Counted from the first letter of the stretch, positions 43,609 to 61,181 are shown. The stretch is 64,000 bases of DNA from Kiritimatiellia bacterium (GCA_031553315.1 JAVBLT010000001.1:4139-68138); one strand, 5' to 3'. A program made the numbers and translations. Notes: a model not told the origin generated them from the letters alone.

Positions 43609-43640
43609 CCGGCCGTGCTTTTCACAAAGAGGAAGTCATT

Positions 43641-44048
43641 ATGAGCGATTCATGTGTTTTTTGCCGGATTTTCAAAGGGGAAATCCCTTCGCGCCGTATC
43701 TTTGAAGACGACCACGCCTACGCGTTTCTCGATATTGAGCCCGCCGAAGAAGGCCATACCCTCGTGATCCCCAAATTCCATGCCGCCACCCTCTTCGAGC
43801 TCCCCCCCGAAGAGCTCGCCGGCATGATGCCCGCCGTTCACCGCGTGGCCATGATGCTCCGCCACCGCCTCGCCTGCCACGGCATGAACCTCCTGCAATC
43901 CAACGGCGCCTGCGCCCTCCAGACCGTGGGCCACGTGCATTTCCACCTCATTCCCCGCTGGGAGAACCGGGCCGTGACCTGGCACGCCAACCGCGAAGCC
44001 GCCGCTCCCGAACAGCTCGATGCGCTTCACAAAAAAATCATTGGCTAA
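43641..44048 (+). CDS. HIT-family nucleotide hydrolase (HinT-like)
   Basis: 135 aa; CVFCRIFKGEIPS..., histidine triad HVHFHLIPR. Confidence 0.85.
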   Translation: MSDSCVFCRIFKGEIPSRRIFEDDHAYAFLDIEPAEEGHTLVIPKFHAATLFELPPEELAGMMPAVHRVAMMLRHRLACHGMNLLQSNGACALQTVGHVHFHLIPRWENRAVTWHANREAAAPEQLDALHKKIIG

Positions 44049-44066
44049 GCCCCGGAAAATTTGAAC

Positions 44067-47000
44067 ATGGACAACGCACACATCGAGCAGCTGCCCGCTC
44101 CAGGCCAGCGCCTTCTCAAATGGGTTGGAGACGTTCTGGAAATCAACGTCAAGCGCCTGGGCGAAAAGCGCCCCGGCCGCATGGTCTTCCGCACCAACAT
44201 CGGCCAAGCCCCCGTCTACCGCCGCGAGCTCATCGCCGAAGTGGAGACCGACGCCCCCATCCTCGGGAAAGACTGGCACGACCTGCCCATGCTCGAAACC
44301 ATCCCCGGCCATTACCGCGTGCGCATTCCCCTGCTCCAGGTCGGCATTTTCTCCGGCAAGGCCTGCTTCCTCCCCGCCGGCTGCGACACCCCCGAATGGC
44401 CCTGCGGCGCGAACCTCACCGTTAAAGTGGCCCCCGCCCACACCGCCGCCGGCAACACCCTCTACGCCGCCTTCACCCGCCAGTTCTCGAAAACCTACAC
44501 CCTCCCCGCCTCACCCGGCGCCCACGCCGCCCTCGAAAAGCTCTTGGATCAACACGGCTACACCGTGATCCCCCCCTCGGGCACCTTCCGCGCCCTCATC
44601 CGCGAGCTGGATCACATCCTCGGCGCCCTCGGTTTCCGCACGCTCCTGCTCCTGCCCATCCACCCCACGCCGACCACCTACGCCCGCATGGGCCGCTTCG
44701 GCTCCCCCTTCGCGGGGCTCGACTTTCTCTCCATCGACCCCGCCCTGGCCGAGTTCGACCCCGCCGCCACCCCGCTCGACCAGTTCAAAGAACTCCTCAA
44801 CGCCGTCCATGCCCGCCAGAGCGCCCTCTTCATGGATCTGCCCGCCAACCACACCGGCTGGGCCGCCACCTTTCAGACCCACCACCCCGAATGGTACAAA
44901 CGCAACCCCGACGGCTCCTTCCATTCCCCCGGCGCCTGGGGCGTGGTCTGGGAAGACCTCGTGGAGCTCGATTACAGCCACGACGCCCTCCGCCGCGCCA
45001 TGGCCGACGTGTTTCTCTACTGGTGCCGGCAGGGGGTCGACGGTTTCCGCTGCGACGCCGGCTACATGATCCCCGCCGCCGCCTGGTCCTACATCGTCGC
45101 CCGCGTCCGCGAAGAATTCCCCAACACCATCTTCCTCCTCGAAGGCCTCGGCGGCCCCATGCAGACCACCGACGACCTCCTCAGCCATTCCCACCTCGAC
45201 TGGGCCTACTCCGAGCTCTTCCAGACCTACGACCGCTCCGCCTGCGAACAGATGCTCCCCCACGCCATCGCCCTTTCCCAGGCCTGCGGCCCCCTCGTCC
45301 ACTTCGCCGAAACCCACGACAACAACCGCCTCGCCGCCCAAGGCCCCCTCTACGCCCGCCTGCGCACAGCCCTCTCCGCCCTCCTCTCCCAGCAAGGCGC
45401 ATTCGGCATCACCGCCGGCGTGGAATGGCTCGCCACCGAGAAGATCGACGTCCACCGCGCATCCGCCCTCAACTGGGGCGCGACCCCCAACCTCGTGGCC
45501 TGGATCCGCCGCCTCAACCTCATCCTCGCCCAGCACCCCGCCTTCGGCCCCCACACCACCCTGGGCATGATCCAGCAAGGCGGAGGCAACGTCCTCGCCG
45601 TTCGCCGCGCCTACGGGCAAGGCTGCGCCAAAGCGCTTCTCATCCTCATCAACTTCGAGCTCGGCCACCCCCAGACCGTCAGCTTCTCCGACCCCCTCTT
45701 CACCGAAACCACCCTCCACGACCTCATCACCGGCCGCGCCGTCGCCATCCACCCGGGCGGCCTCGTATCGCTCCAGCCCGGCGAAGCGCTCTGCCTCACC
45801 GCCGACCCCGGCGAGGTCGCCGCCATTGAAGCCGCCGCCCACCGCACCCAAGGCTGTTACCCCGTGCAGGGGCTCATCGAGCGCGCCCGCCGCGTGATGG
45901 CCATGCGCACCAAAGAAGCCCTCGGCGAAACCTACGACACCGACCCCGAAGCCCTCAAAAACCTCGGCCACGAACTCTTCAGCAACCCCGCCCGATTCTG
46001 CTCCGACCGCCACGGCATCCCCCGCGCCATCCGCTTCAGCCTCCCCGAAGACCTGACCCGCCAAGTCATGGTCCCCCCCGGCTTCCTCCTCTGGGTCGCC
46101 TCACCCGCCGAATTCCGAGCCCAAGTCGCCCGGCCCGACGGCACCGTCTACCACACCACCGCCTCCATACCCTTTGAAGACGGCACCCACGGCGCCATCT
46201 TCAGCGTACACGACGGCCACACCCGCACCCCCCACACCGCCCTCATCACCTTCGGCATCTACGCCCGCGAAAAAGCGTACCGCGCCCAGGCCCAAATCAT
46301 CGCCCTCCCCGAGCCCGGCCTTCAGAAAACCGTCATCCGCCAATTCCCCGGCCACCAGATCCGCAAAGACGAAACCCTCCTCACCCTCCTGACCAACGGC
46401 ACCGGCGCCATGAGCCAGATCCGCCTCGCCTGGAGCGCCATCCGCAGCCAATACGATTGCCTCCTCGCCCTCAACAGCCACCCCGGCGTGCCCGCAGACC
46501 GCACCGTTTTCCTCACCCGCTGCCGCGCCTGGCTCCGCTACAACGGCTACTCCGCCCCCATCGACGCCTCCTGCCTTGAACACTTCACCGCCGACGCCGC
46601 CGGCGAAGCCGCCGAATGGCTCTTCGCCGTACCCTCCGGCATGGGCCGCAAAGTGCAGATCCGCCTCCGCCTCGCCCTCCAGCCCGGCGCCAACCGCCTC
46701 GCCATGGCCATCACCCGCGAAGACAGCCCCAACACCCCCGCCGACGCCGTCACCCTCATCCTCAGGCCCGACATCGAATGGCGCAACTTCCACACCAAAA
46801 CCAAAGCCTTCGCCGGCCCCGAAAAAGACTTCCCCCATTGGTCCCGCCACACCGATACCGGCTTCCACTTCACACCGCCGGGCGCCCAACCCCTCGAAAT
46901 CAGCCTCAGCCAAGGCCAATGGCACCCCCAGCCCGAATGGATCTACATGGTGCCCAACCCCGACGAAACCGCCCGCGGGCAAGACGGCTCCACCGACCTC

Positions 47001-48317
47001 CACAGCCCCGGCTGGTTCGAGCTCCCCCTGCAAAACGGCCAGACCGCCCGCCTCACCGCCGGCGAACAAAACGCCCCCCAAGCCCCCATCCCAGGCCTCC
47101 ACAAAACCCTCGACCCCGAACCGCTCACCCTGCGAGAAGCCATGCACCAGGCCATCCGCGCCTACGTCGTCCGGCGCGACACCCATAAAACCGTCATCGC
47201 CGGCTACCCCTGGTTCCTCGACTGGGGCCGCGACACCCTCATCGTCCTGCGCGGCCTCATCGCCGACGGCCAGATCGACACCGCCTACGACATCATCTAC
47301 GAATTCGGCCGCTTTGAAAAACACGGCACCCTCCCCAACATGATCCGCGGCGAAGACGACGCCAACCGCGAAACCGTCGACGCCCCCCTCTGGTTCGGCG
47401 TCTGCGCCGGCGACCTCATCGCCCACAGCGGCCCCCAAAAAGCCCTCGCCTTCCGTTGCGGCCAGCGCACCCTGCGCGAAATCCTCCTCTCCATCGCCGA
47501 AAACTACATCAAAGGCACCCCCAACGGCATCCGCGTAGACCCCGAAAGCGGCCTCGTCTTCAGCCCCTCCCATTACACCTGGATGGACACCAACTACCCC
47601 GCCGGCACCCCCCGCGAAGGCTACCCCGTTGAAATCCAGGCCCTCTGGGCCCGCCTGCTCGACATCCTCGCCCAGCACATCGACCCCCGCTGGAAAGACC
47701 TCGCCGCCCAAGTCCGCACCTCATTCGCCCGCCTCTTCGCCCTCCCCGGCGCCGGCGGCCTCGCCGACTGCCTCCGCGCCACCCCCGGCACCCCCGCCGC
47801 CCTCGCCGCCCAGGACGACGCGATCCGCCCCAACCAGCTCTACGCCGTCACCCTCGGCCTCCTCGACCAGAACCGCCCCCTCGCCCGCGCCGTCATCCAA
47901 ACCTGCGAACAGCTCCTCACCCCCGGCTCCATCCGCACCCTCGCCAACCGCCCCGTCAAACTCCCCCTTGAAATCCTGCGCAACGGCCACCTCCTCGGCG
48001 ACCCCCGCCACCCTTACCGCGGCCGCTACGAAGGCGACGAAGACACCCTCCGCAAACCCGCCTACCACAACGGCACCGGCTGGACCTTCCCCTTCCCCCT
48101 CTACGCCGAAGCCCTCCACCGCGCCTACGGCCCCCACGCCCGCGCCACCGCCCTCGCCTGGCTCGGTTCCGCCACAGACCTCGTCAACAAAGACTGCGTA
48201 ACCCAGCTCCCCGAATGCACCCAGGGCGACGCCCCCCACGAACCCTGCGGCACCCACGCCCAAGCCTGGGGCGTCAGCGAGCTCCTGCGCGTGCTCATCC
48301 TCCTCCAGCAGCCATGA
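44067..48317 (+). CDS. glycogen debranching enzyme, eukaryote-type (GH13 alpha-amylase catalytic domain plus amylo-alpha-1,6-glucosidase GDE_C domain)
   Basis: ~1416 aa; GH13 region (GFRCDAGYMIPAAAW; FLLEGLGG); C-terminal six-hairpin glucosidase region (GYPWFLDWGRDTLIVLRGL). Confidence 0.7.
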   Translation: MDNAHIEQLPAPGQRLLKWVGDVLEINVKRLGEKRPGRMVFRTNIGQAPVYRRELIAEVETDAPILGKDWHDLPMLETIPGHYRVRIPLLQVGIFSGKACFLPAGCDTPEWPCGANLTVKVAPAHTAAGNTLYAAFTRQFSKTYTLPASPGAHAALEKLLDQHGYTVIPPSGTFRALIRELDHILGALGFRTLLLLPIHPTPTTYARMGRFGSPFAGLDFLSIDPALAEFDPAATPLDQFKELLNAVHARQSALFMDLPANHTGWAATFQTHHPEWYKRNPDGSFHSPGAWGVVWEDLVELDYSHDALRRAMADVFLYWCRQGVDGFRCDAGYMIPAAAWSYIVARVREEFPNTIFLLEGLGGPMQTTDDLLSHSHLDWAYSELFQTYDRSACEQMLPHAIALSQACGPLVHFAETHDNNRLAAQGPLYARLRTALSALLSQQGAFGITAGVEWLATEKIDVHRASALNWGATPNLVAWIRRLNLILAQHPAFGPHTTLGMIQQGGGNVLAVRRAYGQGCAKALLILINFELGHPQTVSFSDPLFTETTLHDLITGRAVAIHPGGLVSLQPGEALCLTADPGEVAAIEAAAHRTQGCYPVQGLIERARRVMAMRTKEALGETYDTDPEALKNLGHELFSNPARFCSDRHGIPRAIRFSLPEDLTRQVMVPPGFLLWVASPAEFRAQVARPDGTVYHTTASIPFEDGTHGAIFSVHDGHTRTPHTALITFGIYAREKAYRAQAQIIALPEPGLQKTVIRQFPGHQIRKDETLLTLLTNGTGAMSQIRLAWSAIRSQYDCLLALNSHPGVPADRTVFLTRCRAWLRYNGYSAPIDASCLEHFTADAAGEAAEWLFAVPSGMGRKVQIRLRLALQPGANRLAMAITREDSPNTPADAVTLILRPDIEWRNFHTKTKAFAGPEKDFPHWSRHTDTGFHFTPPGAQPLEISLSQGQWHPQPEWIYMVPNPDETARGQDGSTDLHSPGWFELPLQNGQTARLTAGEQNAPQAPIPGLHKTLDPEPLTLREAMHQAIRAYVVRRDTHKTVIAGYPWFLDWGRDTLIVLRGLIADGQIDTAYDIIYEFGRFEKHGTLPNMIRGEDDANRETVDAPLWFGVCAGDLIAHSGPQKALAFRCGQRTLREILLSIAENYIKGTPNGIRVDPESGLVFSPSHYTWMDTNYPAGTPREGYPVEIQALWARLLDILAQHIDPRWKDLAAQVRTSFARLFALPGAGGLADCLRATPGTPAALAAQDDAIRPNQLYAVTLGLLDQNRPLARAVIQTCEQLLTPGSIRTLANRPVKLPLEILRNGHLLGDPRHPYRGRYEGDEDTLRKPAYHNGTGWTFPFPLYAEALHRAYGPHARATALAWLGSATDLVNKDCVTQLPECTQGDAPHEPCGTHAQAWGVSELLRVLILLQQP

Positions 48318-49198
48318 CCGACAGCGGCCCCCCCACCCTCACCCGCCTCCGCCAGCGCAGCGACCTCCTGCGCGCCGTGCGAAACTTCTTTTACGACCGC
48401 GCCTTCCTCGAAGTAGAGACCCCCGTCCGCATACCCGCCCCCCCCAACGAAGCCTTCCTCGAAGCCCCCCCCTCCGGCCCCCGCGCCTGGCTGCGCACCT
48501 CCCCCGAGCTCCACATGAAACGCCTCCTCGCCGCCGGCACAGGCCCCATCTTCCAGATCGGCCCCTGCTTCCGCCAAAACGAACGCGGCGCCCGCCACAA
48601 CCCCGAATTCACCATGCTCGAATGGTACCGCCCCAACGAAACCATCGAAAGCCTTTATGCCGACGTCGAGGCCCTCTGCCACACCCTCGGCCTCACACAC
48701 CCCGCCCCCTTCCCCCGCCACACCCTCGACACCCTCTACCGCCGCCACGCCCACTGGTCCCCCCTCGAAACCTGGGATGAAGACCGCTTCGACACCGACA
48801 TGGCCCTCCTCATCGAGCCCGCCCTCCCCCAGACCACCCCCTGCTTCCTCACCGGCTACCCCGCCCAAGCCGCCGCCCTCGCCCGCCTCAGCCCCACCGA
48901 TCCCCGCATCGCCGAACGCTTCGAATTTTACCTCAACGGCATTGAAATCGCCAACGCCTACGGCGAGCTCACCGACCCCGCCGCCCAGCGCGCCCGCTTT
49001 CAAGAAGCCGCCGCCCGCCGCGCCCGCCACACCCTCACCGTGTACCCGCTCGACGAACCCTTCCTCCAAGCCCTCCCCGCCATGCCCCCCTCCGCCGGCA
49101 TCGCCCTGGGCCTCGACCGCCTCGCCATGCACCTCAGCGGCGCAACAGCCATCGACCAGGTTCGCGGCTTCTGCCCCCCCATCGGCCACTGCTGGTAA
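48314..49198 (+). CDS. epmA: EF-P lysine ligase (lysyl-tRNA synthetase paralog GenX/PoxA)
   Basis: class II aaRS core without anticodon-binding domain: FLEVETPV, FQIGPCFRQNERGARHNPEFTMLEWY, GIALGLDRL; ATG overlaps the GDE stop. Confidence 0.7.
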   Translation: MTDSGPPTLTRLRQRSDLLRAVRNFFYDRAFLEVETPVRIPAPPNEAFLEAPPSGPRAWLRTSPELHMKRLLAAGTGPIFQIGPCFRQNERGARHNPEFTMLEWYRPNETIESLYADVEALCHTLGLTHPAPFPRHTLDTLYRRHAHWSPLETWDEDRFDTDMALLIEPALPQTTPCFLTGYPAQAAALARLSPTDPRIAERFEFYLNGIEIANAYGELTDPAAQRARFQEAAARRARHTLTVYPLDEPFLQALPAMPPSAGIALGLDRLAMHLSGATAIDQVRGFCPPIGHCW

Positions 49199-49263
49199 AA
49201 GAAGCGCCCTATGATTCCACCGATAAATGACAGCGCGAAATGATTGCCAATTGAAGCCGCATC

Positions 49264-50271
49264 GTGTATACTACACCGGATATCTTAGAGGAAGCTAAAG
49301 CGATGCAAACACTCGACACCTCCACGTTCACCCAGGCGCTTGAAAAGACCCGCCGCCCCTATCAGGCCGATTACTACGCCTTCTACTCCAGCCTCTGGGA
49401 TGCCGTGACCTTCGACCCCGCCCTCATGCTCATTCCGGTCGACGACCACGTGGCGCACCGCGGCGACGGAGTCTTCGAAACCTTCAAATGCGTCAACGGC
49501 GCCGCCTACCTGCTCGAAGCCCACCTCAGCCGCTTTCACCGCTCCGCCTCCGGCATCTGCATCAGCTTTCCCGGCGGCAAAGCCGCCATCCGCGAAAAAG
49601 TGATCGCCGTGATGAAAGCCGCCGGAAAAGCCGATTGCTCCGTGCGCCTGCTCCTCTCCCGCGGCCCCGGCAGCTTCGGGGCAGACCCCGCCTCCGCCAT
49701 CGGAGCCGTGCTCTACATCGCCGTCTACGCCCTGGGCAAGCCCTTCATGGTCAAACACCCCGAAGGCGCCCGCGCCTGCCGGAGCCGCATCCCCCAGAAA
49801 CACGCCGACTTCGCAACCATCAAAACCTGCAACTACCTCCCCAACGCCCTCATGAAAGAAGAAGCCCGCCTGCTGGATGTAGACTTCACCGTGGGCTTCG
49901 ACGACAACGGCTTTATGACCGAAGGCGCGGTCGAAAACGTCGGCATCGTCTCCAAAACCGGTCGCCTCACCTTCCCCCCGCTCGACACCATTCTCCCCGG
50001 CACCACCATGCTCAGAGCCGCCGACCTCGCCCGGAGCCTCGAGGAAAAAGGCCTCATCAGCGGCGTGACCTTCCAGCAGATCACCTATAAAGACATGCTC
50101 GAAGCCCGCGAAATCCTCATCGTCGGCACCACCCTCAACGCCGTCGCCGTCGTCCAATTCGAAGGCAGAACCGTCGGCACAGGCACCCCGGGCCCCGTTT
50201 GGGAAGCCCTCAACAGCCTCCTCGTTTGCGACATCGAAAGCAATCCCGCCCTCCGCACCCCCTTTATGTGA
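49264..50271 (+). CDS. class IV (fold type IV) aminotransferase, BCAT/aminodeoxychorismate-lyase-like; alternative start 49303
   Basis: 335 aa; fold type IV pattern with EAHLSRFHRSA and catalytic-lysine region. Confidence 0.65.
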   Translation: MYTTPDILEEAKAMQTLDTSTFTQALEKTRRPYQADYYAFYSSLWDAVTFDPALMLIPVDDHVAHRGDGVFETFKCVNGAAYLLEAHLSRFHRSASGICISFPGGKAAIREKVIAVMKAAGKADCSVRLLLSRGPGSFGADPASAIGAVLYIAVYALGKPFMVKHPEGARACRSRIPQKHADFATIKTCNYLPNALMKEEARLLDVDFTVGFDDNGFMTEGAVENVGIVSKTGRLTFPPLDTILPGTTMLRAADLARSLEEKGLISGVTFQQITYKDMLEAREILIVGTTLNAVAVVQFEGRTVGTGTPGPVWEALNSLLVCDIESNPALRTPFM

Positions 50272-50291
50272 TTGAAAGAAAAGGTTTCCCC

Positions 50292-50747
50292 ATGAAATCA
50301 TACAACACCATGCTTGAAGACGCCGTCGTCGTCAGCGACCTCAAAGCCACCGACATGTTTGGCGCCATCGCCGAATTGACCGATGCCCTCGTTGAAAACG
50401 GCAAGCTCTCCACCGAAAGCCGCGAAGCCGCCCAGCAAGCCGTCGTCCGCCGCGAAATGAGCGCAACCACCGTCATGACCGACGAAATCGCCCTGCCCCA
50501 CGGCCGCACCGACGCCGTCGACACCCTCATCTGCGCCGTCGGCGTCAGCAAACAAGGCTTCAACGGCGAAGCCCCCGATGAAAAGCTCACCCGCATCGTC
50601 GTCATGCTCCTCATCCCCCCCAATTCAGGCGTCGGCTACATCCAGTTTCTCGCCAACCTCAGCCGCGTGCTCATGGAACCGCGCAACCGCGAAACCATCG
50701 TCAGCGCACCCACCCGCGAAGCCGTCCTCACCGCAATGACCGTCTAG
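50292..50747 (+). CDS. ptsN: PTS EIIA type-2 domain protein (PtsN/EIIA-Ntr-like regulator)
   Basis: 151 aa; active-site His in IALPHGRTD; no other PTS component nearby, which fits a regulatory EIIA-Ntr. Confidence 0.65.
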   Translation: MKSYNTMLEDAVVVSDLKATDMFGAIAELTDALVENGKLSTESREAAQQAVVRREMSATTVMTDEIALPHGRTDAVDTLICAVGVSKQGFNGEAPDEKLTRIVVMLLIPPNSGVGYIQFLANLSRVLMEPRNRETIVSAPTREAVLTAMTV

Positions 50748-50760: not shown

Positions 50761-53700
50761 ATGTTCAAGCCCGTCTCAAACAAGCCCGACTTCCCCGCCA
50801 ACGAAGAAGCCATCCTCGCCCAGTGGCAGGAAGAACAAACCTTCAAACAAAGCCTTGAACAGCGCAAAGACGCCCCCCCCTTCGTCTTCTACGACGGCCC
50901 CCCCTTCGCCACCGGCCTCCCCCACTACGGCCACCTCCTCGCCGGCACCATCAAAGACATCGTCCCCCGCTACCAGACCATGCGCGGCCGCTACGTGGAG
51001 CGCCGCTTCGGCTGGGATTGCCACGGCCTGCCCATCGAAGCCCTCGCCCAAGAAGCCCTCGGCGTGAGCGGAGCCTACGAAATCCGCAACCTCGGCATCG
51101 CCGCCTTCAACGAACAATGCCGATCCATGGTCCAGCGCTACGTCGCCGAATGGGAAAAAACCGTCACCCGCATGGGGCGGTGGGTCGACTTCGAAAACGA
51201 CTACAAAACCATGGATCCCACCTTCATGGAAACCATCTGGTGGGTCTTCAAACGCATCTTCGACCAGGGCCGCGTCTACAAATCCCACCGCATCATGCCC
51301 TACAGCTGGAAACTCTCCACCCCCCTCTCCAACTTCGAAGCCGGCAACAATTATAAAGACGTCCAAGACCCCGCCGTCACCGTCCGCTGCCGCCTCAAAG
51401 CCCCCGACCCCGCCTGGGGCGAAGAAACCCACCTCCTCATCTGGACCACCACCCCCTGGACCCTCCTCACCAACTTCGCCATCTGCGCCGGCCCCGACAT
51501 CGACTACGTCGCCCTTCGCGACCTCAAAGAAAGCCGCACCTACATCCTCGCCCAGGCCCGCGTGTGCGCCTACTACAAAAACCCCGAAGAATACCAGATC
51601 CTCCAGACCTTCAAAGGCAGCCGCCTCAAAAGCCTCGCCTACGAACCCATCTTCCCCTGCTACGCCGGCAAACCCAACGCCTTCGTCGTCGCCACCGACG
51701 ACTACGTCACCACCACCGACGGCACCGGCCTCGTCCACAACTCCCCCGCCTACGGCGAAGACGACTTCCGCGTCTGCCAAGCCCTCGGCATCACCCTCGA
51801 AGACCCCATGGACGAATCCTGCGCCTTCACCGCCCCCGCCCCCGAAGAATACCGCGGCCGCTTCTGCAAAGACTGCGACAAAGACATCATCAAAGCCCTC
51901 AAAGCCACCGGCAAACTCGTCCACCAAACCACCATCGTCCACTCCTACCCCTTCTGCGACCGCACCGACACCCCCCTCATCTACCGCGCCATCGACGCCT
52001 GGTACATCCGCATCGAAGACATCCGCCACCGCCTCCTCGCCGCCAACGCCACCACCCGCTGGATGCCCGAATACGTCGGCGAAAAACGCTTCGAAAACTG
52101 GCTCAAAGACGCCAAAGACTGGAACATCTCCCGCAACCGCTTCTGGGGCTCCTGCATCCCCATCTGGGTCAACGAAACCGACCCCACCGACCTCATCTGC
52201 ATCGGCTCCATCGCCGAGCTCGAAACCCTCAGCGGCCAAAAAGTCACCGACCTGCACAAACACAACATCGACCCCATCCTCATCCAAAAAGACGGCAAAA
52301 CCTACCGCCGCACCCCCGAAGTCCTCGATTGCTGGTTCGAATCCGGCGCCATGCCCTACGCCCAGCGCCACTACCCCTTCAGCGGCACCGGCACAGAAGC
52401 CGACTTCTTCCCCGCCCACTTCATCGCCGAAGGCCTCGACCAGACCCGCGGCTGGTTCTACACCCTCCTCGTGCTCGGCACCCTCCTCTTCGACCAATCC
52501 CCCTACCGCAACGTCGTCGTCAACGGCCTCATCCTCGCCGAAGACGGCAAAAAAATGAGCAAACGCCTCAAAAACTACCCCGACCCCATCCACGTCATCA
52601 ACACCTACGGCGCCGACGCCCTCCGCCTCTACATGGTCCACTCCCCCGTCGTCCGAGCCGAAAACCTCCGCTTCAGCGAAAGCGGCGTCAAACAGCTCCT
52701 CCGCGACCTCCTCATCCCCTGGTGGAACGCCTACAGCTTCTTCGTCACCTACGCCAACGTCGACGGCTTCGAAGAACCCCAAGTCACCGTCCCCGACAGC
52801 CCCAACGACCTCGACCGCTGGATCGTCAGCTCCATCGAAACCCTCATCCAAGACGTCACCGCCGCCATGGATTCCTACGACCTCCAGCGCGCCGTCCGCC
52901 CCTTCGTCGCCTGCGTCGAAGACCTCACCAACTGGTACATCCGCCGCTCCCGCCGCCGCTTCTGGAAAACCAAAGACGACGCCGACAAACGCCACGCCTA
53001 CCGCACCCTCCGCTACATCCTCGTACAGCTCGCCAAAGTCGCCGCCCCCTTCACCCCCTTCATCAGCGACACCATCTACCGCAACCTCAAAGGCCCCGGC
53101 GATCCCCCCTCCGTCCACCACAGCCCCTTCCCCACCCCCAACGCCGCCGCCCGCGACCGCGACCTCGAAACCCGCATGGCCCTCGTCCAGCAAGTCGTCA
53201 AACAAGGCCGCCAGCTCCGCACCGAAAACGACCTCAAAACCCGCCAGCCCCTCCCCGCCCTACACATCGTCAGCGCCAACCCCGAAATCCGCCGCATGCT
53301 CACCGGCTTCGAAGCCACCATCTGCGAAGAGCTCAACGTCAAAGAAATCCGCTACGGCGCCGACGAAACCACCCTCGCCACCCTCACCGTAAAGGCCGAC
53401 TTCCGCAAACTCGGCCCCCGCTTCGGCGCCAACATGAAACACATCGCCGAGCTCATCACCCGCCTCACCCAGCAGCAAGCCTCCCACCTCGCCGCCGGCG
53501 CCCCCATCGACCTCACCCTCGACGGCGAACCCATCACCCTCACCGCCGCCGACATCACCCTCCAGCGCACCCCCCACCACGGCCTCGTCGTCTCCACCGG
53601 CGGCGACCTCCTCACCGCCCTCGAGACCGACCTCACCCCCGCCCTCATCCACGAAGGCCTCGCCCGCGAAACCGTCAGCCGCATCCAAGCCCTCCGCAAA

Positions 53701-53901
53701 GACGCCGACCTCGCCGTCACCCAGCGCATCGCCCTCACCCTCCAGACCGACCCCGAGCTCCAGACCGCCCTCCAAACCTGGCGCGCCTACCTCCTCGAAG
53801 AAACCCAGGCCGACACCCTCCTCTTCGCCCCCACCGAAGCCCCCCCCCTCGACATCAACGGCCACCCCTGCGCCATCCAAATCGACCCCATCGCCGGGTA
53901 A
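50761..53901 (+). CDS. ileS: isoleucyl-tRNA synthetase (type 2, eukaryote/archaea-like form)
   Basis: 1046 aa; HIGH (PHYGHLL), KMSKS (KMSKRLKN), CP1 editing domain, no C-terminal Zn-finger extension. Confidence 0.9.
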   Translation: MFKPVSNKPDFPANEEAILAQWQEEQTFKQSLEQRKDAPPFVFYDGPPFATGLPHYGHLLAGTIKDIVPRYQTMRGRYVERRFGWDCHGLPIEALAQEALGVSGAYEIRNLGIAAFNEQCRSMVQRYVAEWEKTVTRMGRWVDFENDYKTMDPTFMETIWWVFKRIFDQGRVYKSHRIMPYSWKLSTPLSNFEAGNNYKDVQDPAVTVRCRLKAPDPAWGEETHLLIWTTTPWTLLTNFAICAGPDIDYVALRDLKESRTYILAQARVCAYYKNPEEYQILQTFKGSRLKSLAYEPIFPCYAGKPNAFVVATDDYVTTTDGTGLVHNSPAYGEDDFRVCQALGITLEDPMDESCAFTAPAPEEYRGRFCKDCDKDIIKALKATGKLVHQTTIVHSYPFCDRTDTPLIYRAIDAWYIRIEDIRHRLLAANATTRWMPEYVGEKRFENWLKDAKDWNISRNRFWGSCIPIWVNETDPTDLICIGSIAELETLSGQKVTDLHKHNIDPILIQKDGKTYRRTPEVLDCWFESGAMPYAQRHYPFSGTGTEADFFPAHFIAEGLDQTRGWFYTLLVLGTLLFDQSPYRNVVVNGLILAEDGKKMSKRLKNYPDPIHVINTYGADALRLYMVHSPVVRAENLRFSESGVKQLLRDLLIPWWNAYSFFVTYANVDGFEEPQVTVPDSPNDLDRWIVSSIETLIQDVTAAMDSYDLQRAVRPFVACVEDLTNWYIRRSRRRFWKTKDDADKRHAYRTLRYILVQLAKVAAPFTPFISDTIYRNLKGPGDPPSVHHSPFPTPNAAARDRDLETRMALVQQVVKQGRQLRTENDLKTRQPLPALHIVSANPEIRRMLTGFEATICEELNVKEIRYGADETTLATLTVKADFRKLGPRFGANMKHIAELITRLTQQQASHLAAGAPIDLTLDGEPITLTAADITLQRTPHHGLVVSTGGDLLTALETDLTPALIHEGLARETVSRIQALRKDADLAVTQRIALTLQTDPELQTALQTWRAYLLEETQADTLLFAPTEAPPLDINGHPCAIQIDPIAG

Positions 53902-54722: not shown

Positions 54723-54751
54723 TTGACCTTTCGGGGCGGGCGTGGTATCAT
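54723..54751 (+). promoter_or_regulatory. sigma70-like promoter for htpG (TTGACC-17 nt-TATCAT), preceded by the palindrome TTGGGCAAGCCCAA at 54701-54714
   Basis: hexamers 43 nt before ATG; perfect 6+2+6 inverted repeat just upstream of the -35. Confidence 0.4.
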
Positions 54752-54794
54752 TTTTCCCATTATTTTTCAGCCCGATACCGATAGGAGAAAAACC

Positions 54795-56663
54795 ATGGCT
54801 CAAACACACGAATTCAAAGCGGAAATCAAACAGGTCCTCGACCTTGTGATCCATTCTCTTTACTCAAAGAAGGAAATCTTCCTCCGTGAACTGATTTCCA
54901 ACGCCTCCGACGCCATCGACCGCGCGCAGTATCTCGGCCTCACGGAGGCGGAGGTGGTGGCGGATAATCCGGTCTGGGGGATCTCGCTCATCGCCGATAA
55001 AACGGCTCGCACGCTGACCGTCGCCGATAATGGCATCGGGATGACGCCGGAGGAATTGGAGGATTCGCTCGGCACCATCGCCAAGTCGGGCACGAAGGCT
55101 TTCATGGAGGCGCTCAAGGGCAAGGACGGCGCCAATGCGCCTGAGCTTATCGGTCAATTCGGCGTGGGTTTTTACGCGGCGTTTATGGTCGCCGATTCCG
55201 TCACCGTGGAAACGCTTCGCCGCGGCAAGGGCCAGAAGGCCGTGCGCTGGTTCTCCACGGGCGACGGCACTTATTCCATCGACGACGGCTCGCAGGCAAC
55301 CCCCGGCACGACCATCACGCTGCACCTGCGCGAAGAGATGGACAATTTCACTGCGGAGTGGACGCTCAAGGATCTTGTGAAGCGCTACTCCGATTTCATC
55401 GCCTACCCCATTCTTCTCGGCCAGGACGGCAAGCCGCCCGCCGCCGACGCTCAGCCGATCAACACCATGCGCGCCATCTGGAAGCGCTCCAAGAGCGAAA
55501 TCACCCCCGAAGAATACACTACCTTCTACAAGCACATCGCCCATGAGGTGAAAGACCCGCTCAAGGTGTTGCACATTTCGGCCGAAGGCGTGCTCGAATA
55601 CAAGGCCATTCTTTTCATTCCGCAGGACGGCGGCATGGATCTGATGATGCCCGGCCCCAGGCGCGGCATCAACCTCTATGTGAAAAACGTGTTTATCGGC
55701 AACGACTTCGAGGAGCTCATGCCCTCTTACCTGCGCTTCATCAAGGGCGTGGTCGATTCGAGCGACCTCCCGCTCAACGTCTCGCGCGAAATGCTCCAAG
55801 ACGACCTCGTGATCCGCAAGATCCGCACCGATCTCACCAACCGCGTGCTCAAAGCGCTCGCCGAAATGGCCAAGGACAAACCCGAGGATTACGCCGCCTT
55901 CTACAAAGCCCTCGGCGCCATCCTCAAAGAAGGCCTCCACGCCGACTGGGAAAACAAGGACAAGCTCAAGGAGCTCCTCCGCTACCCCTCCATGAAAACC
56001 GAAAGCGGCGAACCCATCAGCCTCAAAACCTACCGCGAAGCCATGCCCGAAGGCCAGAAAGCCATCTACTACATCGTGGCCGATTCCCTCCAGACCGCCC
56101 GCCACTCTCCCTACCTCGAAACCTTCCGCAAACGCGGCTTCGACGTGCTCTTCATGGCGGATCCCGTGGATGAATGGATCGCCGATTCCCTCGGCGAGTT
56201 CGACAAGATTCCCATTCAATCCATCGCCGCCGCCGACCTCGACCTCGGCGAGCCCGAAGCCGAAAAGGAAGCCGAAAAGAAGGCGCTCGATGAAGCCGCC
56301 GACGGTTTCAAGGCGCTCACTGGCGCGATCCAGACCCGCCTCGCGGCCGATGTGAGCGAAGTCCGCGTCTCCTCCCGCCTGGTGGATTCCCCCTGCATCC
56401 TCGTCGCCGCCAAAGACGCGCTCTCCCCCTCCATGGCCCGCATGATGCAGGCCATGGGCCAGAGCGTGCCCAAACAGCTGCGCGTGCTCGAAATCAACCC
56501 CCGGCACCCCCTCCTCGAAAAAATGAAGGCCGCCGCCGCCGCAGGCGAAGACCTCGCCGACGCAATCGACCTGCTCTACGGCCAGGCCCTCATCGCCGAA
56601 GGCTCGGAGCTGCCCGACCCCGGCCGCTTCGTGAAACTCGTCAGCACCCTCATGATGAAATAA
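54795..56663 (+). CDS. htpG: molecular chaperone HtpG (Hsp90)
   Basis: 622 aa; LRELISNASDAIDRAQY (Bergerat ATP lid), GQFGVGFYAAFMVAD, C-terminal dimerisation region. Confidence 0.9.
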   Translation: MAQTHEFKAEIKQVLDLVIHSLYSKKEIFLRELISNASDAIDRAQYLGLTEAEVVADNPVWGISLIADKTARTLTVADNGIGMTPEELEDSLGTIAKSGTKAFMEALKGKDGANAPELIGQFGVGFYAAFMVADSVTVETLRRGKGQKAVRWFSTGDGTYSIDDGSQATPGTTITLHLREEMDNFTAEWTLKDLVKRYSDFIAYPILLGQDGKPPAADAQPINTMRAIWKRSKSEITPEEYTTFYKHIAHEVKDPLKVLHISAEGVLEYKAILFIPQDGGMDLMMPGPRRGINLYVKNVFIGNDFEELMPSYLRFIKGVVDSSDLPLNVSREMLQDDLVIRKIRTDLTNRVLKALAEMAKDKPEDYAAFYKALGAILKEGLHADWENKDKLKELLRYPSMKTESGEPISLKTYREAMPEGQKAIYYIVADSLQTARHSPYLETFRKRGFDVLFMADPVDEWIADSLGEFDKIPIQSIAAADLDLGEPEAEKEAEKKALDEAADGFKALTGAIQTRLAADVSEVRVSSRLVDSPCILVAAKDALSPSMARMMQAMGQSVPKQLRVLEINPRHPLLEKMKAAAAAGEDLADAIDLLYGQALIAEGSELPDPGRFVKLVSTLMMK

Positions 56664-56674
56664 GGGCGTTTCCC

Positions 56675-57223
56675 ATGGCTAAAAACATCCTCATCCTCAC
56701 CGGCAGCCCCCGCAAGGGCGGCAACACCGACCTGCTGGCCGACGCCTTCGCCAAAGGCGCCGCCGCCGCAGGCCACACCGTGGCCCGGTTCGATTCGGGC
56801 CGCGCCCGAATCGGCGGCTGTGTAGACTGCAAGACCTGTTTCAGCAACGAGGGCAAGGCCTGTTCGTTTGACGACGACTTCAACGCCCTCGCCCCCCTCA
56901 TTGCCCAGGCCGATGCGATCGTCTTCGCCGCCCCGCTCTACTTCTTCACCTTTCCCGCCCAGATCAAGGCCGCCATCGACAAACTCTACGCCTTCTTCGT
57001 AGCCGGAAAACCGCTGAAGATCAAGGAAAGCGCCTTCATCGCCTGCGGCGAGACCGACGACCCCGCCCACTTCAAAGGCATGGTCGAAACCTACCAAATC
57101 ATGGCCGGATTCCTCGGCTGGGCCGACAAAGGCCGGATCATCGCAACCGGCGTCCACACGAAAGGCGACGTGCTCGGCACACCCTTCCTTCAGCAGGCCG
57201 AAGCGCTCGGAAGCGCACTTTAA
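56675..57223 (+). CDS. flavodoxin-fold NADPH-dependent FMN reductase / iron-sulfur flavoprotein-like
   Basis: 182 aa; ILILTGSPRKGGNT FMN-binding start, compact Cys cluster CVDCKTCFSNEGKAC. Confidence 0.65.
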   Translation: MAKNILILTGSPRKGGNTDLLADAFAKGAAAAGHTVARFDSGRARIGGCVDCKTCFSNEGKACSFDDDFNALAPLIAQADAIVFAAPLYFFTFPAQIKAAIDKLYAFFVAGKPLKIKESAFIACGETDDPAHFKGMVETYQIMAGFLGWADKGRIIATGVHTKGDVLGTPFLQQAEALGSAL

Positions 57224-57426: not shown

Positions 57427-60051
57427 ATGATGAAACGTCTACTGAGCTGTGTTGTCCTCCTCTTCGCAAGCGGCCCCGCATTCGGTTATCCCGCGGTCGA
57501 AGGCCTCATCGGCCGCCTCCTGCCCGCCTATCAGGATCAGATCGTGTTGGAAGACAATCTCCCCCCCGCCCCCGGCGGGCGCGACGCCTTCATCATTTCC
57601 ACCGACGCCCGGGGCCGCCTCGTGCTCGGCGGCTCCAGCCCCGTGGCCCAGGCCTCCGCCCTCGGCTGGTACCTCCGCCACACAGCCGGTTGCGAAGTGA
57701 GCTGGGAAGGCACACAGCTCAACCTCCCCGAAAAGCTCCCCCCCCTCGCCCAGCCCATCCAAAAAACCACCCCCTACCGCTTCCGCCCCTACCTCAACTA
57801 CTGCACCCTCAGCTACTCCGCCCCCTTCTGGAACTGGCAACGCTGGGAGCGCGAGATCGACGTCATGGCCCTCAACGGCATCAACATGCCCCTCTCCCCC
57901 ATCGGCCTTGAAGGCGTGTGGTACAACATGCTCCGCCAATTCGCCTTCACCGATGCCGAAGCGCGCGAATTCCTCGTAGGCCCCGCCTTCTTCGCCTGGC
58001 AGTGGATGACCAACATCGAAGACTTCGCCGGCCCCCTCCCCAAAAACTGGATCGAGACCCACATCACCCTCGGCCAGCGCATCATGAAACGCCAGCTCGA
58101 TTTCGGCATGACCCCCATCCAGCAAGGCTTCACCGGCTTCGTACCCCTTAAAATGAAAGAAAAATTCCCCCAGGCCGCCATCAGACAGCAGCCCCCCTGG
58201 TGCGGAGCCTTCAAAGGCAGCGCCCAGATCGACCCCCTCGACCCCCTCTTCCCCAAGCTCGCCGCCGCCTTCTACGCCGAGCAGAAAAAACTCTTCGGCG
58301 CCCACGGCTACTACGGCGCCGACCCCTTCCACGAAAGCTCACCCCCCCAAGCCGGCGACGCCTACCTCACCGCCGTCGGCAAAATCATCTGCCAAGAAGC
58401 CCTCAAAGCCGACCCCGACGCCACCCTCTGCATGCAATCCTGGAGCCTCCGCACCCCCATCATGCGCGCCATCCCCAAAAACCACCTCCTCGTGCTCGAC
58501 ATCGGCGGCAAATGGGCCCGCTCAAACGCGTTCGACGGCTACCCCTTCACCATCGGCACCATCCACAACTTCGGCGGCCGCACCCGCCTCTTCGGCGATC
58601 TCGCCGGCCTTGCCCGCAACAGCTTCCTCAGCGCAAAAACCCAAAATCCCAACTGCATCGGCATGGGCCTCTTCCCCGAAGCCATCCAAAACAACCCCGT
58701 CTACTTCGGCATGATCTTCGACCTCATCTGGCGCGACACCCCCCTCGACATCGCCCAATGGATCCCCGCCTACACCGCCCGCCGCTACGGCACCCAAGAC
58801 CCCGCCATCGACCAAGCCTGGCGGCTCCTCCTCCAAAGCGTCTACAAACCCGGAACCGGCCGCGGCTCCTCGCTCATCTGCGCAAGCCCCGCCCTCAACA
58901 TACGCCAGGCAGACCCCAACGAAGGCTTCCGCATCGACTACAACCCCCTCACCCTCCTCAGCGCCTGGGAAACCCTCCTCAGCGCCAGCCCCAAAATCAA
59001 AAACGCCCCCGGCTACAGCTTCGACCTCGCCGACATCGGCCGCCAAGTCATGGCCGACACCCTCCTCGCCCTCCACTGCACCGTCGCCAACGCCTACCTC
59101 GACCAAAACCTCGCCGCCTACCGCCGCGCCGTCGAGACCTTTCACGCCTTCGCCCTCGATTTCGACGCGCTCATGAAAACCCAGCCCCTCTTCTCCTTCG
59201 AGAAATGGGTTCAGGATGCCCGCGCCTGGGGCGCCACCCCCGCCGAAAAAGACCTCTACGCCCTCAACGCCGCCCTCCAGATCACCCAATGGGGCGCCAA
59301 CGGCAACCACCGCCCCCGCATCTGCGAATACGCCTGGAAAGAATGGTCCGGCCTCATCCGCGACTACTACATCCCCCGCTGGGCCATCTTCCACAACGAG
59401 CTCGAAAAAAACCTCATCGCCGGCGCCCCCTGGCCCGATGAAGACAAAAACAAAATCAAAGACTGGGGCCGCACCGCCTACCGCACAACCCCCTTCATGA
59501 ACACCTTGGCCGACTTCGAAGACCCCTGGATCCGCTCCCCCCACATCTACCCCCCCCATCACCCCGGCGACACCCCCGCCGAAGCCGCCCGCATCCTCGC
59601 CAAATGGGGCAGCCACATCAAAGCCAGCCTCGCGACCAACCCCATCGACCAGATCCGCCGGATCCGCCAGCGCATCGCCGCGCGCGACACCACCGCCGAC
59701 CTCGGCGCCCCCGTCTTCACCTGGTCCAAAAAAGACTGCGCCCTCGGCTGGAAAACCTGGACTGTCGACATCACCCCCGCCATCATCCAAAACGGCCAAT
59801 ACGAAATCACCTTCCTCTACCAAAACGGCGGCGCCCGCCTCGACATCGCCGAAGCCACCCTCCTCCAAAACGGCCGCGAAATTTCCAAAGACGCCCACCC
59901 CGGATCCACCGGCGACATCAACACCGCCAACACCTACCTCCTGAGCCACACCGACCCCATCATCGGCGCCACCTTCACCCTCCAGGCCAAAGTCAAAACC
60001 CACGGCTCCACCAGCTCCAACGGCAAAATCTGGGTTCGCCTCCGCAAATAG
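57427..60051 (+). CDS. alpha-N-acetylglucosaminidase (GH89, NAGLU-like) with C-terminal F5/8-type C / CBM32-like domain
   Basis: 874 aa; signal peptide; YRFRPYLNYCTLSYSAPFWNWQRWEREIDVMALNGINMPL matches the GH89 N-terminal/TIM-barrel junction; stop TAG is the first triplet of MITE E. Confidence 0.8.
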   Translation: MMKRLLSCVVLLFASGPAFGYPAVEGLIGRLLPAYQDQIVLEDNLPPAPGGRDAFIISTDARGRLVLGGSSPVAQASALGWYLRHTAGCEVSWEGTQLNLPEKLPPLAQPIQKTTPYRFRPYLNYCTLSYSAPFWNWQRWEREIDVMALNGINMPLSPIGLEGVWYNMLRQFAFTDAEAREFLVGPAFFAWQWMTNIEDFAGPLPKNWIETHITLGQRIMKRQLDFGMTPIQQGFTGFVPLKMKEKFPQAAIRQQPPWCGAFKGSAQIDPLDPLFPKLAAAFYAEQKKLFGAHGYYGADPFHESSPPQAGDAYLTAVGKIICQEALKADPDATLCMQSWSLRTPIMRAIPKNHLLVLDIGGKWARSNAFDGYPFTIGTIHNFGGRTRLFGDLAGLARNSFLSAKTQNPNCIGMGLFPEAIQNNPVYFGMIFDLIWRDTPLDIAQWIPAYTARRYGTQDPAIDQAWRLLLQSVYKPGTGRGSSLICASPALNIRQADPNEGFRIDYNPLTLLSAWETLLSASPKIKNAPGYSFDLADIGRQVMADTLLALHCTVANAYLDQNLAAYRRAVETFHAFALDFDALMKTQPLFSFEKWVQDARAWGATPAEKDLYALNAALQITQWGANGNHRPRICEYAWKEWSGLIRDYYIPRWAIFHNELEKNLIAGAPWPDEDKNKIKDWGRTAYRTTPFMNTLADFEDPWIRSPHIYPPHHPGDTPAEAARILAKWGSHIKASLATNPIDQIRRIRQRIAARDTTADLGAPVFTWSKKDCALGWKTWTVDITPAIIQNGQYEITFLYQNGGARLDIAEATLLQNGREISKDAHPGSTGDINTANTYLLSHTDPIIGATFTLQAKVKTHGSTSSNGKIWVRLRK

Positions 60052-60180
60052 AGCAGATTCCGAATGAGATTTCCGGATTCTTCGAAGGTGATTTTGGGTT
60101 TTTACAAACGCTTGAGGTGAGCCGTAGCAACGCTACGGCGAGCTGAAAGGCAGATTGCAACGGAATCAAGCACGATACCC
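60049..60180. mobile_element. MITE copy E (left end defined, right end degenerate)
   Basis: TAGAGCAGATTCCGAATGAGATTTCCGGATTCTTCGAAGGTGATTTTGGGTTTT...GCCGTAGCAACGCTACGGCGAGCTGAAAG is ~90% identical to copy A over ~110 bp. Confidence 0.5.
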
Positions 60181-60195
60181 CCCCGCCCATTCAAT

Positions 60196-61026
60196 TCAGC
60201 GAAGAGCCGAATTTTGGTAGACGCGGACATAATCAATCACGAAATACGCCGGAAGAGCCGTTTTTTCGAGGCTCCCGCCGGTGCTGCCCATCGCGAGGTT
60301 GAGGAGCAGATACATCGGTTCGCGGAAGGGCTCTTTGGCGCCCTTGCCATCGGGATTGAGGGCTTCGGAGAGAGGCACGGCATTGAGCAGCTCCTCATCG
60401 AGATAAAGGCGGATGGATTCGGGCGACCAATCCATGCGCCACGTGTGGAAGGATTGATCCCAATCGTCGGCGCCGAAGTGGCTCATGGGGCGCTTGGCGG
60501 AGCGCCAGTTTTGCGCATAAGCTTCGCCTTCTTTCGCCCAGCAGAGGTTGGCGAGAATCGAATGGTGGTAGTATTCCATGAGGTCGATTTCGCCGCATTC
60601 AGGCCATGCGCGATGGGTGCCCAGGAACCAGATGGCGGGCCAGAGGCCGGTTTCGGCGCGGATTTTGGCGCGGATTTCAAAGCGCCCATACGTCCACGCC
60701 TGGCGGTGCCGGGTGGTGAGGCAGGCGGAGGTGTATTCAATGTTTTTGCGCGCGGCGCGCCAATCGTCTTTTTTTTCGGGGTTGTAGAGCGGGTTGGGGC
60801 GGATTTCCCTCCGGCCTTCAATCCAGAGAAAGCCGTTGGAGCAGGCGGCGTTTTCGGCCTGATACCACTGCATTTCCTTGTTGCGCGAATAGCCGATCTC
60901 GTAGTTCCACCTGGCGGGGTCGGGGGCGCCGGCGAGGTCGAATTCGTCGCTCCAGACCAAACGGTAACCGTCATCCGCCACTGCCGGCCCTGCAATGAAG
61001 AGGGCGAAAAACAAAAAAGCACGCAT
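60196..61026 (-). CDS. GH16 family glycoside hydrolase (laminarinase/beta-glucanase-like), secreted
   Basis: 276 aa from ATG 61026; signal peptide MRAFLFFALFIAGPAVA; catalytic motif GEIDLMEY (ExDxxE). Confidence 0.8.
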   Translation of the reverse strand: MRAFLFFALFIAGPAVADDGYRLVWSDEFDLAGAPDPARWNYEIGYSRNKEMQWYQAENAACSNGFLWIEGRREIRPNPLYNPEKKDDWRAARKNIEYTSACLTTRHRQAWTYGRFEIRAKIRAETGLWPAIWFLGTHRAWPECGEIDLMEYYHHSILANLCWAKEGEAYAQNWRSAKRPMSHFGADDWDQSFHTWRMDWSPESIRLYLDEELLNAVPLSEALNPDGKGAKEPFREPMYLLLNLAMGSTGGSLEKTALPAYFVIDYVRVYQNSALR

Positions 61027-61181
61027 CGTTTGATTCCTTTCCGGAGGCAGAGTATAACGCGGTTTTTGCTTTTGGAAAAGCCGCGTGCGGAAAATTCCCG
61101 GCATTCGGATGCGTATTGCGGTATGCAGCCGCGGGCTTTTTGCGGGGCTGCGGGAATCGTTGTTGACAAAAACCGCCCGAG

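Follow-up and report, generated by a model that had tools for sequence, protein, structure and literature searches.

The coding sequences of a 64,000-nucleotide (nt) stretch of DNA from a Kiritimatiellia bacterium (GCA_031553315.1, JAVBLT010000001.1:4139-68138; hereafter the window, with positions counted from its first letter) carry a codon bias in which the sense strand of every gene is pushed from G and T to C and, where C is not synonymous, to A. The gene under study, ileS (50761–53901, plus strand; Pfam: tRNA-synt_1), lies close to the extreme: its third codon positions are A, C, G, and T in proportions of 0.12, 0.79, 0.08, and 0.01, and C occupies 0.97 of its fourfold-degenerate sites. 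The strength of the bias is set per gene and per operon, from near-parity in grpE, dnaJ, the Tad genes, and a transposase to near-fixation in ileS, a helicase gene, rluA, a GH123 gene, and LptFG, and the bias is a trait of a lineage of uncultured gut Kiritimatiellia, not the product of a mixture of two genomes. We tentatively propose that a gene-graded nucleotide pressure on the sense strand, most likely a transcription-linked mutation or repair bias, acts atop an ordinary preference for C-ending codons. None of the reports that our literature searches turned up deals with codon usage in Kiritimatiellota.

Size, gradation, and reach of the bias

Scanning the long open reading frames (ORFs) of the window with Pfam gave about 50 genes, in which the fraction of C at third codon positions of the sense strand (C3; A3, G3, and T3 are defined likewise) spans 0.20 (grpE) to 0.88 (rluA). 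C reaches 0.98 of fourfold sites in the central segment of the helicase gene, and T-ending codons make up 0–3% of the extreme class, with T3 down to ~0.01. When the extreme genes are pooled, most codon boxes are 88–98% C-ending; CTC, GCC, CCC, ACC, CGC, and GGC supply 88–95% of their own boxes, AAA supplies 89% of lysine codons, and GAA supplies 85% of glutamate codons. A reading made earlier from the sequence alone (the original prediction) had described such an almost exclusive use of NNC codons, complemented by NNA codons for lysine, glutamate, and glutamine. That extreme is real and the lysine and glutamate preferences hold, but glutamine does not conform, CAA being just 49% of its codons, and GTC, which had been listed among the near-exclusive codons, supplies only 74% of valine. 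At its maximum, the bias brings C to 0.99 among NNY codons and A to 0.8 among lysine, glutamate, and glutamine codons, and the three codon classes covary across genes (Spearman 0.80–0.93). GC skew falls as low as −0.60 in 2-kb intervals. Differences among genes far exceed sampling noise: fourfold-site counts are heterogeneous (chi-square 2674, 144 degrees of freedom), and the among-gene standard deviation of C3 is 0.173 versus 0.028 expected under binomial sampling.

The original prediction held that the genes fall into two sharply different regimes, a model that mixture models and the dip test reject. Values of C3, C3/(C3+G3), and fourfold C are spread near-evenly from 0.2 to 0.95 over 48 genes. 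By the Bayesian information criterion, a single Gaussian is preferred on five of six measures, two being favored, by merely 1.6, on raw C3/(C3+G3). The bimodality coefficient is 0.47–0.49, compared with 0.555 for a uniform distribution, and an approximate dip test gives p = 0.28–0.52. The gene-to-gene bias is a continuum, not two classes, and the his, tkt, and lysS genes, previously counted as conventional, are intermediate (C3 of 0.58–0.69). Within genes, C3 is 0.53 over the first 50 codons and 0.64 in the remainder (Wilcoxon p = 0.0002) and is level beyond about codon 50; a long 5'-to-3' gradient hinted at by a 300-nt plot was rejected, the dip being confined to the first 25–50 codons.

The orientation of the bias is that of each gene's own sense strand, as the original prediction had proposed. 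The minus-strand gene encoding a GLAA-B-like beta-helix glycosidase (39421–41256) has a C3 of 0.75 and a fourfold C of 0.89 on its own sense strand, and, of the 12 minus-strand genes, nine have more C than G at own-strand fourfold sites. The sense-strand skew does not change sign with gene orientation, though a partial strand effect is possible. Intergenic DNA has a GC content of ~0.45 and a pooled GC skew of −0.05, and the three large noncoding regions have skews of +0.01 to +0.02. This lack of skew in noncoding DNA argues against replication skew as the main cause, again in line with the original prediction. Four spacers between co-directional genes (437 nt in total) have skews of −0.09 to −0.12; they are probably not neutral and provide a weak neutral control, because they are short and carry promoter-like motifs (sigma-70-like matches in such spacers at 23111, 43580, 49244, and 50272). 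A terminator scan performed no better on the window than on shuffled sequence.

The bias reaches all codon positions, including the first and second, and with them the proteins. Extreme genes are enriched in proline, threonine, histidine, and glutamine and depleted in valine, glycine, glutamate, and methionine; proline, threonine, histidine, and valine make up 7.8%, 8.0%, 3.6%, and 3.6% of residues in extreme genes versus 5.2%, 4.9%, 1.9%, and 6.7% in low genes. Across genes, fourfold C correlates with A+C−G−T at codon positions 1 and 2 (rho = 0.57, p = 2e-5, with leucine, arginine, and serine codons excluded). Compared with a consensus of ~80 orthologues, ileS shows G-to-A/C replacements over the reverse at 44:15 and T-to-C/A at 24:5, whereas control lineages are near 1:1. 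In pairwise comparisons at codon positions 1 and 2, the ratio of G/T-to-A/C replacements is ~2.0 for ileS (p = 1e-6 to 1e-8), ~1.6 for ptsN, 1.4 for hisA, 1.0–1.6 for the aminotransferase gene, 1.1 for tkt, and 0.88 for lysS and htpG; at equal protein divergence, this ratio scales with the C3 of each gene.

Codon choice at conserved residues was compared by Mantel–Haenszel odds ratios. In 12 ileS genes of the biased clade, the odds ratio for C-ending codons at conserved residues is 0.66–1.1, whereas in two unbiased relatives (L037 and L045) C-ending codons are commoner at these residues (1.5–1.7). No ribosomal-protein or EF-Tu gene was found in the window or among the loci retrieved for the biased clade, and tblastn searches with Escherichia coli EF-Tu, GroEL, DnaK, L7/L12, and EF-G matched only GroEL and DnaK, solely in distant unbiased relatives. 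Relative to ileS, these GroEL and DnaK genes have fewer G-ending and more T-ending and C-ending codons. Pure tRNA matching is contradicted by the amino acid shifts together with the negative conserved-site test; given that the same pressure alters amino acids, tRNA matching alone is insufficient.

Neighboring genes are similar in bias (lag-1 autocorrelation 0.59), and C3 climbs along the direction of transcription in co-directional runs (within-block order permutation, p < 0.0002). Among adjacent pairs, C3 is higher in the downstream gene in 29 of 42 cases within the window and in 30 of 44 within the biased clade (18 of 26 without near-duplicate lineages), compared with 65 of 131 in other Kiritimatiellia. 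A rank test over whole runs in the relatives was not significant, which makes it less likely that a gene's place in such a run is what chiefly sets its bias, although the adjacent-pair effect remains in the biased clade. At the divergent junctions near 17.7, 41.3, and 61.2 kb, C3 profiles are V-shaped, as seen in runs of the window and of three other contigs or loci (L081, L085, and L089).

Inheritance within a Kiritimatiellia lineage

The closest relatives of the ileS protein are 65–73% identical and belong to metagenome-assembled Kiritimatiellia of animal guts, several of which carry the label "Candidatus Spyradenecus" or are mislabelled Lentisphaeraceae. Several public bins with Kiritimatiellia ileS loci are titled Agathobacter, Akkermansia, Lachnospira, or Clostridiales, titles that look like binning or labelling errors. 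The original prediction had considered a mosaic genome, recombined with a lineage of different codon usage, or a chimeric assembly; neither fits what we find. The high-bias ileS and the low-bias purB are 72% and 77–78% identical, respectively, to the same Kiritimatiellia, both match a contig of 605,509 bp, and for neither was a closer donor found. The order tkt-lysS-aminotransferase-ptsN-ileS is syntenic in the relatives, where C3 is 0.28, 0.43, 0.39, 0.58, and 0.69 for these five genes, as against 0.58, 0.59, 0.67, 0.71, and 0.79 in the window. The ranks aminotransferase<ptsN<ileS and tkt<lysS<ileS are kept in ~10 loci, and the rank grpE<dnaJ<purB is kept in three loci (L085, L087, and L089) as in the window. 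Among the relatives' genes, SecA, ThiC, ArgG, GalK, ileS, and purB are high and GT25, RecN-like, endonuclease, and AAA_14 genes are low. A C3 of at least 0.73 is reached by four of 483 genes in the relatives versus 14 of 49 in the window. Since gene ranks are conserved and the relatives are the same, the heterogeneity is inherited and gene specific, and this lineage is its extreme. The GLAA-B-like gene is fully biased although its homologues, Bacteroidales and Kiritimatiellia alike, are just 51–58% identical, which indicates that the bias is generated in this genome; a third homologue search with this gene found no close orthologue usable as a baseline. Look-ups with hisC, FMN reductase, and GH123 gave no match. 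At the low end, the IS630-type transposase and a number of hypothetical genes may well have been acquired recently.

Independent short-read data speak against a chimera. Four Logan contigs (run SRR23967709) match the window at 588–9674, 9683–16538 (L086), 16646–23227, and 60111–64000 with 99.96–100% identity, and each of three transitions from low to high bias lies within a single such contig: the step at 6578, where C3 rises from 0.67 in an AI-2E transporter gene (L083); the stretch at 16.6–23.2 kb over which C3 goes from 0.30 to 0.80, including the genes at 18.8–21.1 kb (L091); and the rise in the Tad operon from 61.2 kb onward (L081). The joins near 9680 and at 16540–16646 sit on repeats, and no independent contig bridges them. 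Proteins identical to those encoded by ileS, purB, and the GLAA-B-like gene are recorded from one 146,896-bp NCBI contig.

In the relatives, lysS is directly followed by the class IV aminotransferase gene, ptsN, and ileS, and the window has ~12.6 kb extra at this place (36646–49198). This insert encodes a hexokinase, a MATE protein, the GLAA-B-like glycosidase, a 713-aa hypothetical protein, a HIT protein, the debranching enzyme, and epmA, and it includes both low- and high-bias genes.

Gene blocks, repeats, and poly-C tracts

The genes that the original prediction had named extreme are indeed so. On the plus strand, one extreme block (6578–9650; C3 of 0.82–0.84) encodes a hypothetical protein, an LptF/G permease, and a B12-radical SAM protein, and another (21121–29343; C3 of 0.76–0.88, with the lowest GC skew) encodes a DHH phosphoesterase, a GT2 glycosyltransferase, GH123, an UvrD/PD-(D/E)XK helicase-nuclease read in three frames, and rluA. 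A high block directly upstream of ileS (44061–50747, plus strand; C3 of 0.67–0.76) comprises the glycogen debranching enzyme gene (0.76), epmA (0.73), and the genes for the class IV aminotransferase and ptsN, and the GH89 alpha-N-acetylglucosaminidase gene (57427–60051, plus strand) has a C3 of 0.74; the minus-strand GLAA-B-like gene completes the set. Intermediate genes on the plus strand comprise hisC, hisB, hisA, and the genes for an M16 peptidase, a LolA-like protein, and the AI-2E transporter (508–6581; 0.57–0.69) as well as htpG (0.53) and an FMN reductase gene (0.66) at 54723–57223. The plus-strand run at 33041–39372 descends from intermediate to low through tkt (0.58), lysS (0.59), hexokinase (0.55), and MATE (0.39, with a G3 of 0.42), and is followed on the same strand, beyond the GLAA-B-like gene, by the low genes for the hypothetical protein at 41445 (0.42) and HIT (0.54; 41445–44048). 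The hexokinase (36646–37920) is of the eukaryote type, with Hexokinase_1 and Hexokinase_2 domains, and is uncommon among bacteria. The convergent gap between the MATE and GLAA-B-like genes (39366–39410) contains a perfect bidirectional terminator-like hairpin (A7-GACGCGC ... GCGCGTC-T7).

The largest low block lies on the minus strand (9808–17705; C3 of 0.20–0.54, climbing along transcription) and holds genes for a hypothetical protein, an ECF sigma factor, pyrD, VanZ, purB, dnaJ, grpE, tRNA-Leu, and a Na/Ca exchanger. It is followed on the plus strand by a transition (17808–21118) through rpoZ (0.39), smpB (0.48), tatA (0.59), and a GreA-domain protein gene (0.65). The product of the latter (18941–21118) has 725 aa, which is unusually long for a GreA-family protein; the GreA/GreB N- and C-terminal domains are confined to residues 559–706, and HTH_GRAD is also among the precomputed Pfam matches for the Logan contig that covers this gene. 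The low region at the end of the window (60196–64000) contains a minus-strand GH16 gene (0.45) and, on the plus strand, the start of a Tad/Flp pilus operon (0.31, 0.33, 0.40, and 0.55), which reaches 0.54–0.62 further downstream (L081). An IS630-type transposase in two ORFs, DDE_3 and an N-terminal part (29565–31183, minus strand; C3 of 0.37–0.41), adjoins tRNA-Thr (29394–29469); the element (29394–31183) has a separate upstream ORF, is possibly a frameshifted transposase, and has codon usage near parity. The window contains three tRNA genes and one transfer-messenger RNA gene; tRNA-Ser(UGA), tRNA-Leu(UAA), and tRNA-Thr(UGU) are its only tRNAs, all with UNN anticodons, and 16 related loci contain zero tRNA genes.

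The coincidence of block borders with mobile elements and tRNA genes suggested by the original prediction is confirmed in part. An 89-nt repeat with an internal 45-nt palindrome occurs at 9660–9748 and 60061–60149 (89% identity), both copies lying at convergent gene junctions, and a 63-nt piece at 9745–9807 recurs in direct orientation at 16608–16670 (87% identity), so that the two flank the segment 9808–16607. Together, the first copy and this piece form a short repeat region at 9660–9807; the short-read contigs end at the repeat copies. The tRNA-Thr and IS630-type element at 29394–31183 likewise mark a border, whereas no repeat was found at 18838 or 57234. These short repeats came to light only in comparisons among the intergenic regions, a search of the whole window being flooded by unrelated coding segments of extreme genes that are 63–80% identical over 40–70 nt because of the codon bias.

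The plus strand contains 46 C homopolymers of at least 7 nt, most of them in 24–29 kb; homopolymers of this length made of G, A, and T number 2, 12, and 8, respectively. The C runs derive from CCC-rich proline runs and are thus a by-product of the bias, and they are a likely source of frameshifts. The helicase-nuclease gene (25262–28417) reads in three frames with an intact codon-phase signal in all three segments, and its first and second frame changes fall at runs of 12 C (25461–25472) and 11 C (27448–27458) on the plus strand. These frame changes could be homopolymer assembly errors, the mark of a recent pseudogene, or slippage-based phase variation.

Candidate explanations and known systems

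We posit that the pressure would act on the nucleotides of the transcribed sense strand, beyond codon–anticodon matching, with non-template G and T being lost faster than template G and T, as expected if lesions in the template strand are preferentially repaired. This pressure would be superimposed on the usual tendency of bacteria to favor C-ending over G-ending codons, and that tendency would account for the codon-specific exceptions (glutamine and valine) and the dip in the first 25–50 codons. The rise of the bias along co-directional runs may, speculatively, reflect transcription summed from successive internal promoters; together with the likeness of genes within operons, this rise would lend indirect support to a scaling of the bias with transcription level. 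We are cautious about this proposal, which we hold at somewhat under even odds, and several observations weigh against it. Co-directional spacers in biased runs are not C-rich (C of 0.24–0.26), although they amount to only ~440 nt and probably contain promoters and ribosome-binding sites, and stop codons show no shift to TAA with bias (four of 14 in the extreme class versus nine of 22 in the low class). The bias is uneven between amino acids (CAA at 49% versus AAA at 89%; GTC at 74% versus 93–95% in other boxes), which points to a tRNA-level component, and some steps fall at gene borders inside apparent operons, as between the AI-2E gene (0.67) and the overlapping next gene (0.82). The classical asymmetry of E. 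coli, deamination of non-template cytosine, enriches G and T on the sense strand; enrichment in C and A is the opposite direction and also needs an asymmetric G-to-C transversion. Mean C3 is 0.43 in minus-strand genes versus 0.63 in plus-strand genes (p = 0.0007). Finally, compared with "Ca. Spyradenecus" MAHA01, five plus-strand orthologues have higher C3 in the window (L021), whereas grpE, dnaJ, and purB are lower (0.20, 0.32, and 0.48 in the window versus 0.51, 0.61, and 0.68 in MAHA01; L089), a hint of some further effect of DNA strand or context.

The main rival, which we consider possible but rather doubtful, is very strong translational selection, in which the optimal codons are the C-ending ones, decoded by GNN tRNAs, and AAA/GAA, decoded by modified UNN tRNAs, and the gradation among genes is one of expression level, perhaps accentuated by a reduced tRNA set. 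It would explain why the bias is limited to reading frames, leaving intergenic DNA without skew and stop codons unaffected, and why the bias is weaker over the first codons, a feature of classical codon selection, and the strength varies by codon. The relatives' high housekeeping and low accessory genes also suit it, as does the tie of C-bias to gene ancestry and expression across prokaryotes (PMC7374057), and the GroEL, DnaK, and EF-G-like genes of distant relatives depart from ileS partly in the same direction, with G-ending codons down and C-ending codons up. However, selection on codons alone does not predict that amino acid composition and replacements lie on the same G/T-to-A/C axis and scale with gene bias, or that C-ending codons show no excess at conserved residues, and T-ending codons, which the relatives' GroEL and DnaK genes favor, are eliminated in the extreme class. 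The ranking of genes is also unexpected if our assumptions about expression are right, since rluA and the helicase-nuclease gene are among the most extreme and grpE, dnaJ, htpG, and tkt are low; the climb along operons is opposite to the usual fall in expression. In magnitude, the C-over-T log-odds shift relative to noncoding DNA is ~3.8, above the ~2.65 that Sharp and colleagues in 2005 reportedly gave for the strongest selected codon bias.

Next in order comes selection on the messenger RNA (mRNA) for coding regions poor in G and U, as unstructured long polycistronic messages or as good substrates for Rho surveillance. Because such selection would act on nucleotides, it fits both the amino acid shifts and the lack of a C-ending excess at conserved residues; it would also be oriented by the sense strand and could plausibly strengthen toward the distal genes of long messages. 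The sense strand of the extreme block is only ~36% purine, as calculated from GC and AT skews. We nevertheless regard it as improbable. Spacers within these messages show no enrichment in A and C, the unevenness of the bias among amino acids is left unexplained, and the selection coefficient per site would be tiny against the ~97% C at fourfold sites. Slightly less probable still is replication-strand asymmetry combined with frequent inversions, whereby the plus strand gains C and A and the bias of a gene measures its time in the present orientation. Cumulative GC skew does drop almost monotonically over the window, minus-strand genes have the lower C3, the comparison with MAHA01 moves plus-strand orthologues toward C and grpE, dnaJ, and purB toward G, and repeats and the IS element lie at several block borders. 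Yet noncoding DNA lacks the skew that this model requires, most minus-strand genes have more C than G on their own strand, the GLAA-B-like gene strongly so, plus-strand neighbors differ by up to 0.5 in C3, and what is seen on the minus strand derives essentially from a single block of genes; a recent inversion of the GLAA-B-like gene was rejected, as no inverted repeats flank it. Least probable, and in our view very unlikely, is a mosaic of blocks imported or recombined from lineages that differ in codon usage, or else an assembly chimera. The clustering of similar genes, the low bias of the transposase, several hypothetical genes, and the Tad operon start, which may well have arrived recently, the absence of 36646–49198 between lysS and the aminotransferase gene in the relatives, and the breaks of short-read contigs at repeats speak for it; but the transitions lie within independent contigs, ileS and purB share their nearest relatives with no closer donor, the vertically inherited tkt, lysS, aminotransferase, ptsN, and ileS genes have C3 values of 0.58–0.79 here and 0.28–0.70 in the relatives in the same order, and the GLAA-B-like gene carries the full bias despite its distant homologues.

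If the graded sense-strand pressure that we propose is mutational and tied to transcription, these genomes would offer a natural experiment on the limits of strand-asymmetric mutation in a free-living bacterium and a test bed for the long-argued roles of mutation and selection in GC3 evolution. A bolder reading, which we entertain but think doubtful, is that a previously undescribed sense-strand process (transcription- or repair-coupled mutation, or selection that keeps mRNA almost devoid of G and U) drives fourfold sites to ~97% C, reshapes proteins (valine to isoleucine; more proline, threonine, and histidine), strengthens along operons, and leaves slippage-prone poly-C tracts; if true, this would be the strongest transcription-oriented asymmetry known to us in a bacterium and a mitochondrial signature reached by a different route. 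Should very strong codon selection be the sole cause, no case known to us would be more extreme. In practice, tools that rely on codon usage (detection of horizontal gene transfer, prediction of expression, and composition binning) and origin finding by GC skew would misread such genomes, one genome may be split into "two organisms" by composition tools, and long poly-C tracts give gene callers and assemblers apparent frameshifts.

An intragenomic axis of C3 versus G3 has been described for GC-rich bacteria (PMC7374057, PMC6538778). The Kiritimatiellia bias likewise varies continuously from gene to gene, C-ending codons taking the place of those that end in G or T, with C favored over T in two-fold boxes and, in the relatives, housekeeping genes high and accessory genes low. 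It differs in that fourfold C reaches 0.95–0.98 in ordinary genes, T-ending codons are eliminated, amino acids are shifted, conserved residues show no enrichment, chaperone genes and tkt are low, and the bias climbs along operons. A C-bias linked to expression and ancestry is also present in Pseudomonas, Streptomyces, and Mycobacterium. In E. coli coding sequences, T-to-C changes exceed A-to-G on the sense strand in an expression-dependent manner (bioRxiv 10.64898/2026.05.22.727198). Like bacterial transcription-associated asymmetry in general, whether by deamination or transcription-coupled repair, the bias that we describe is gene graded, oriented by the sense strand, and present at nonsynonymous sites too, and the T-to-C excess matches; unlike the classical form, in which G and T rise, it raises C and A and is far larger. 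In the short transcribed spacers, which are probably not neutral, it was not detectable. The sense strand of animal mitochondria is rich in A and C, with G-poor third positions and shifted protein composition (PMC2779903). The likeness extends to the rise of C and A and fall of G and T at third positions, the increase in threonine, proline, and histidine, and the decrease in valine and glycine; the mitochondrial bias, however, belongs to the replication strand and affects all DNA, whereas here it follows the sense strand of each gene, neighbors differ, and noncoding DNA is unaffected. Borrelia burgdorferi has two codon-usage classes set by leading and lagging strand, with a bimodal distribution. 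Our window shares with it a strong GC and AT skew in coding sequence and an effect on amino acid usage but, unlike Borrelia, has a unimodal, broad distribution in which minus-strand genes mostly keep C over G on their own strand.

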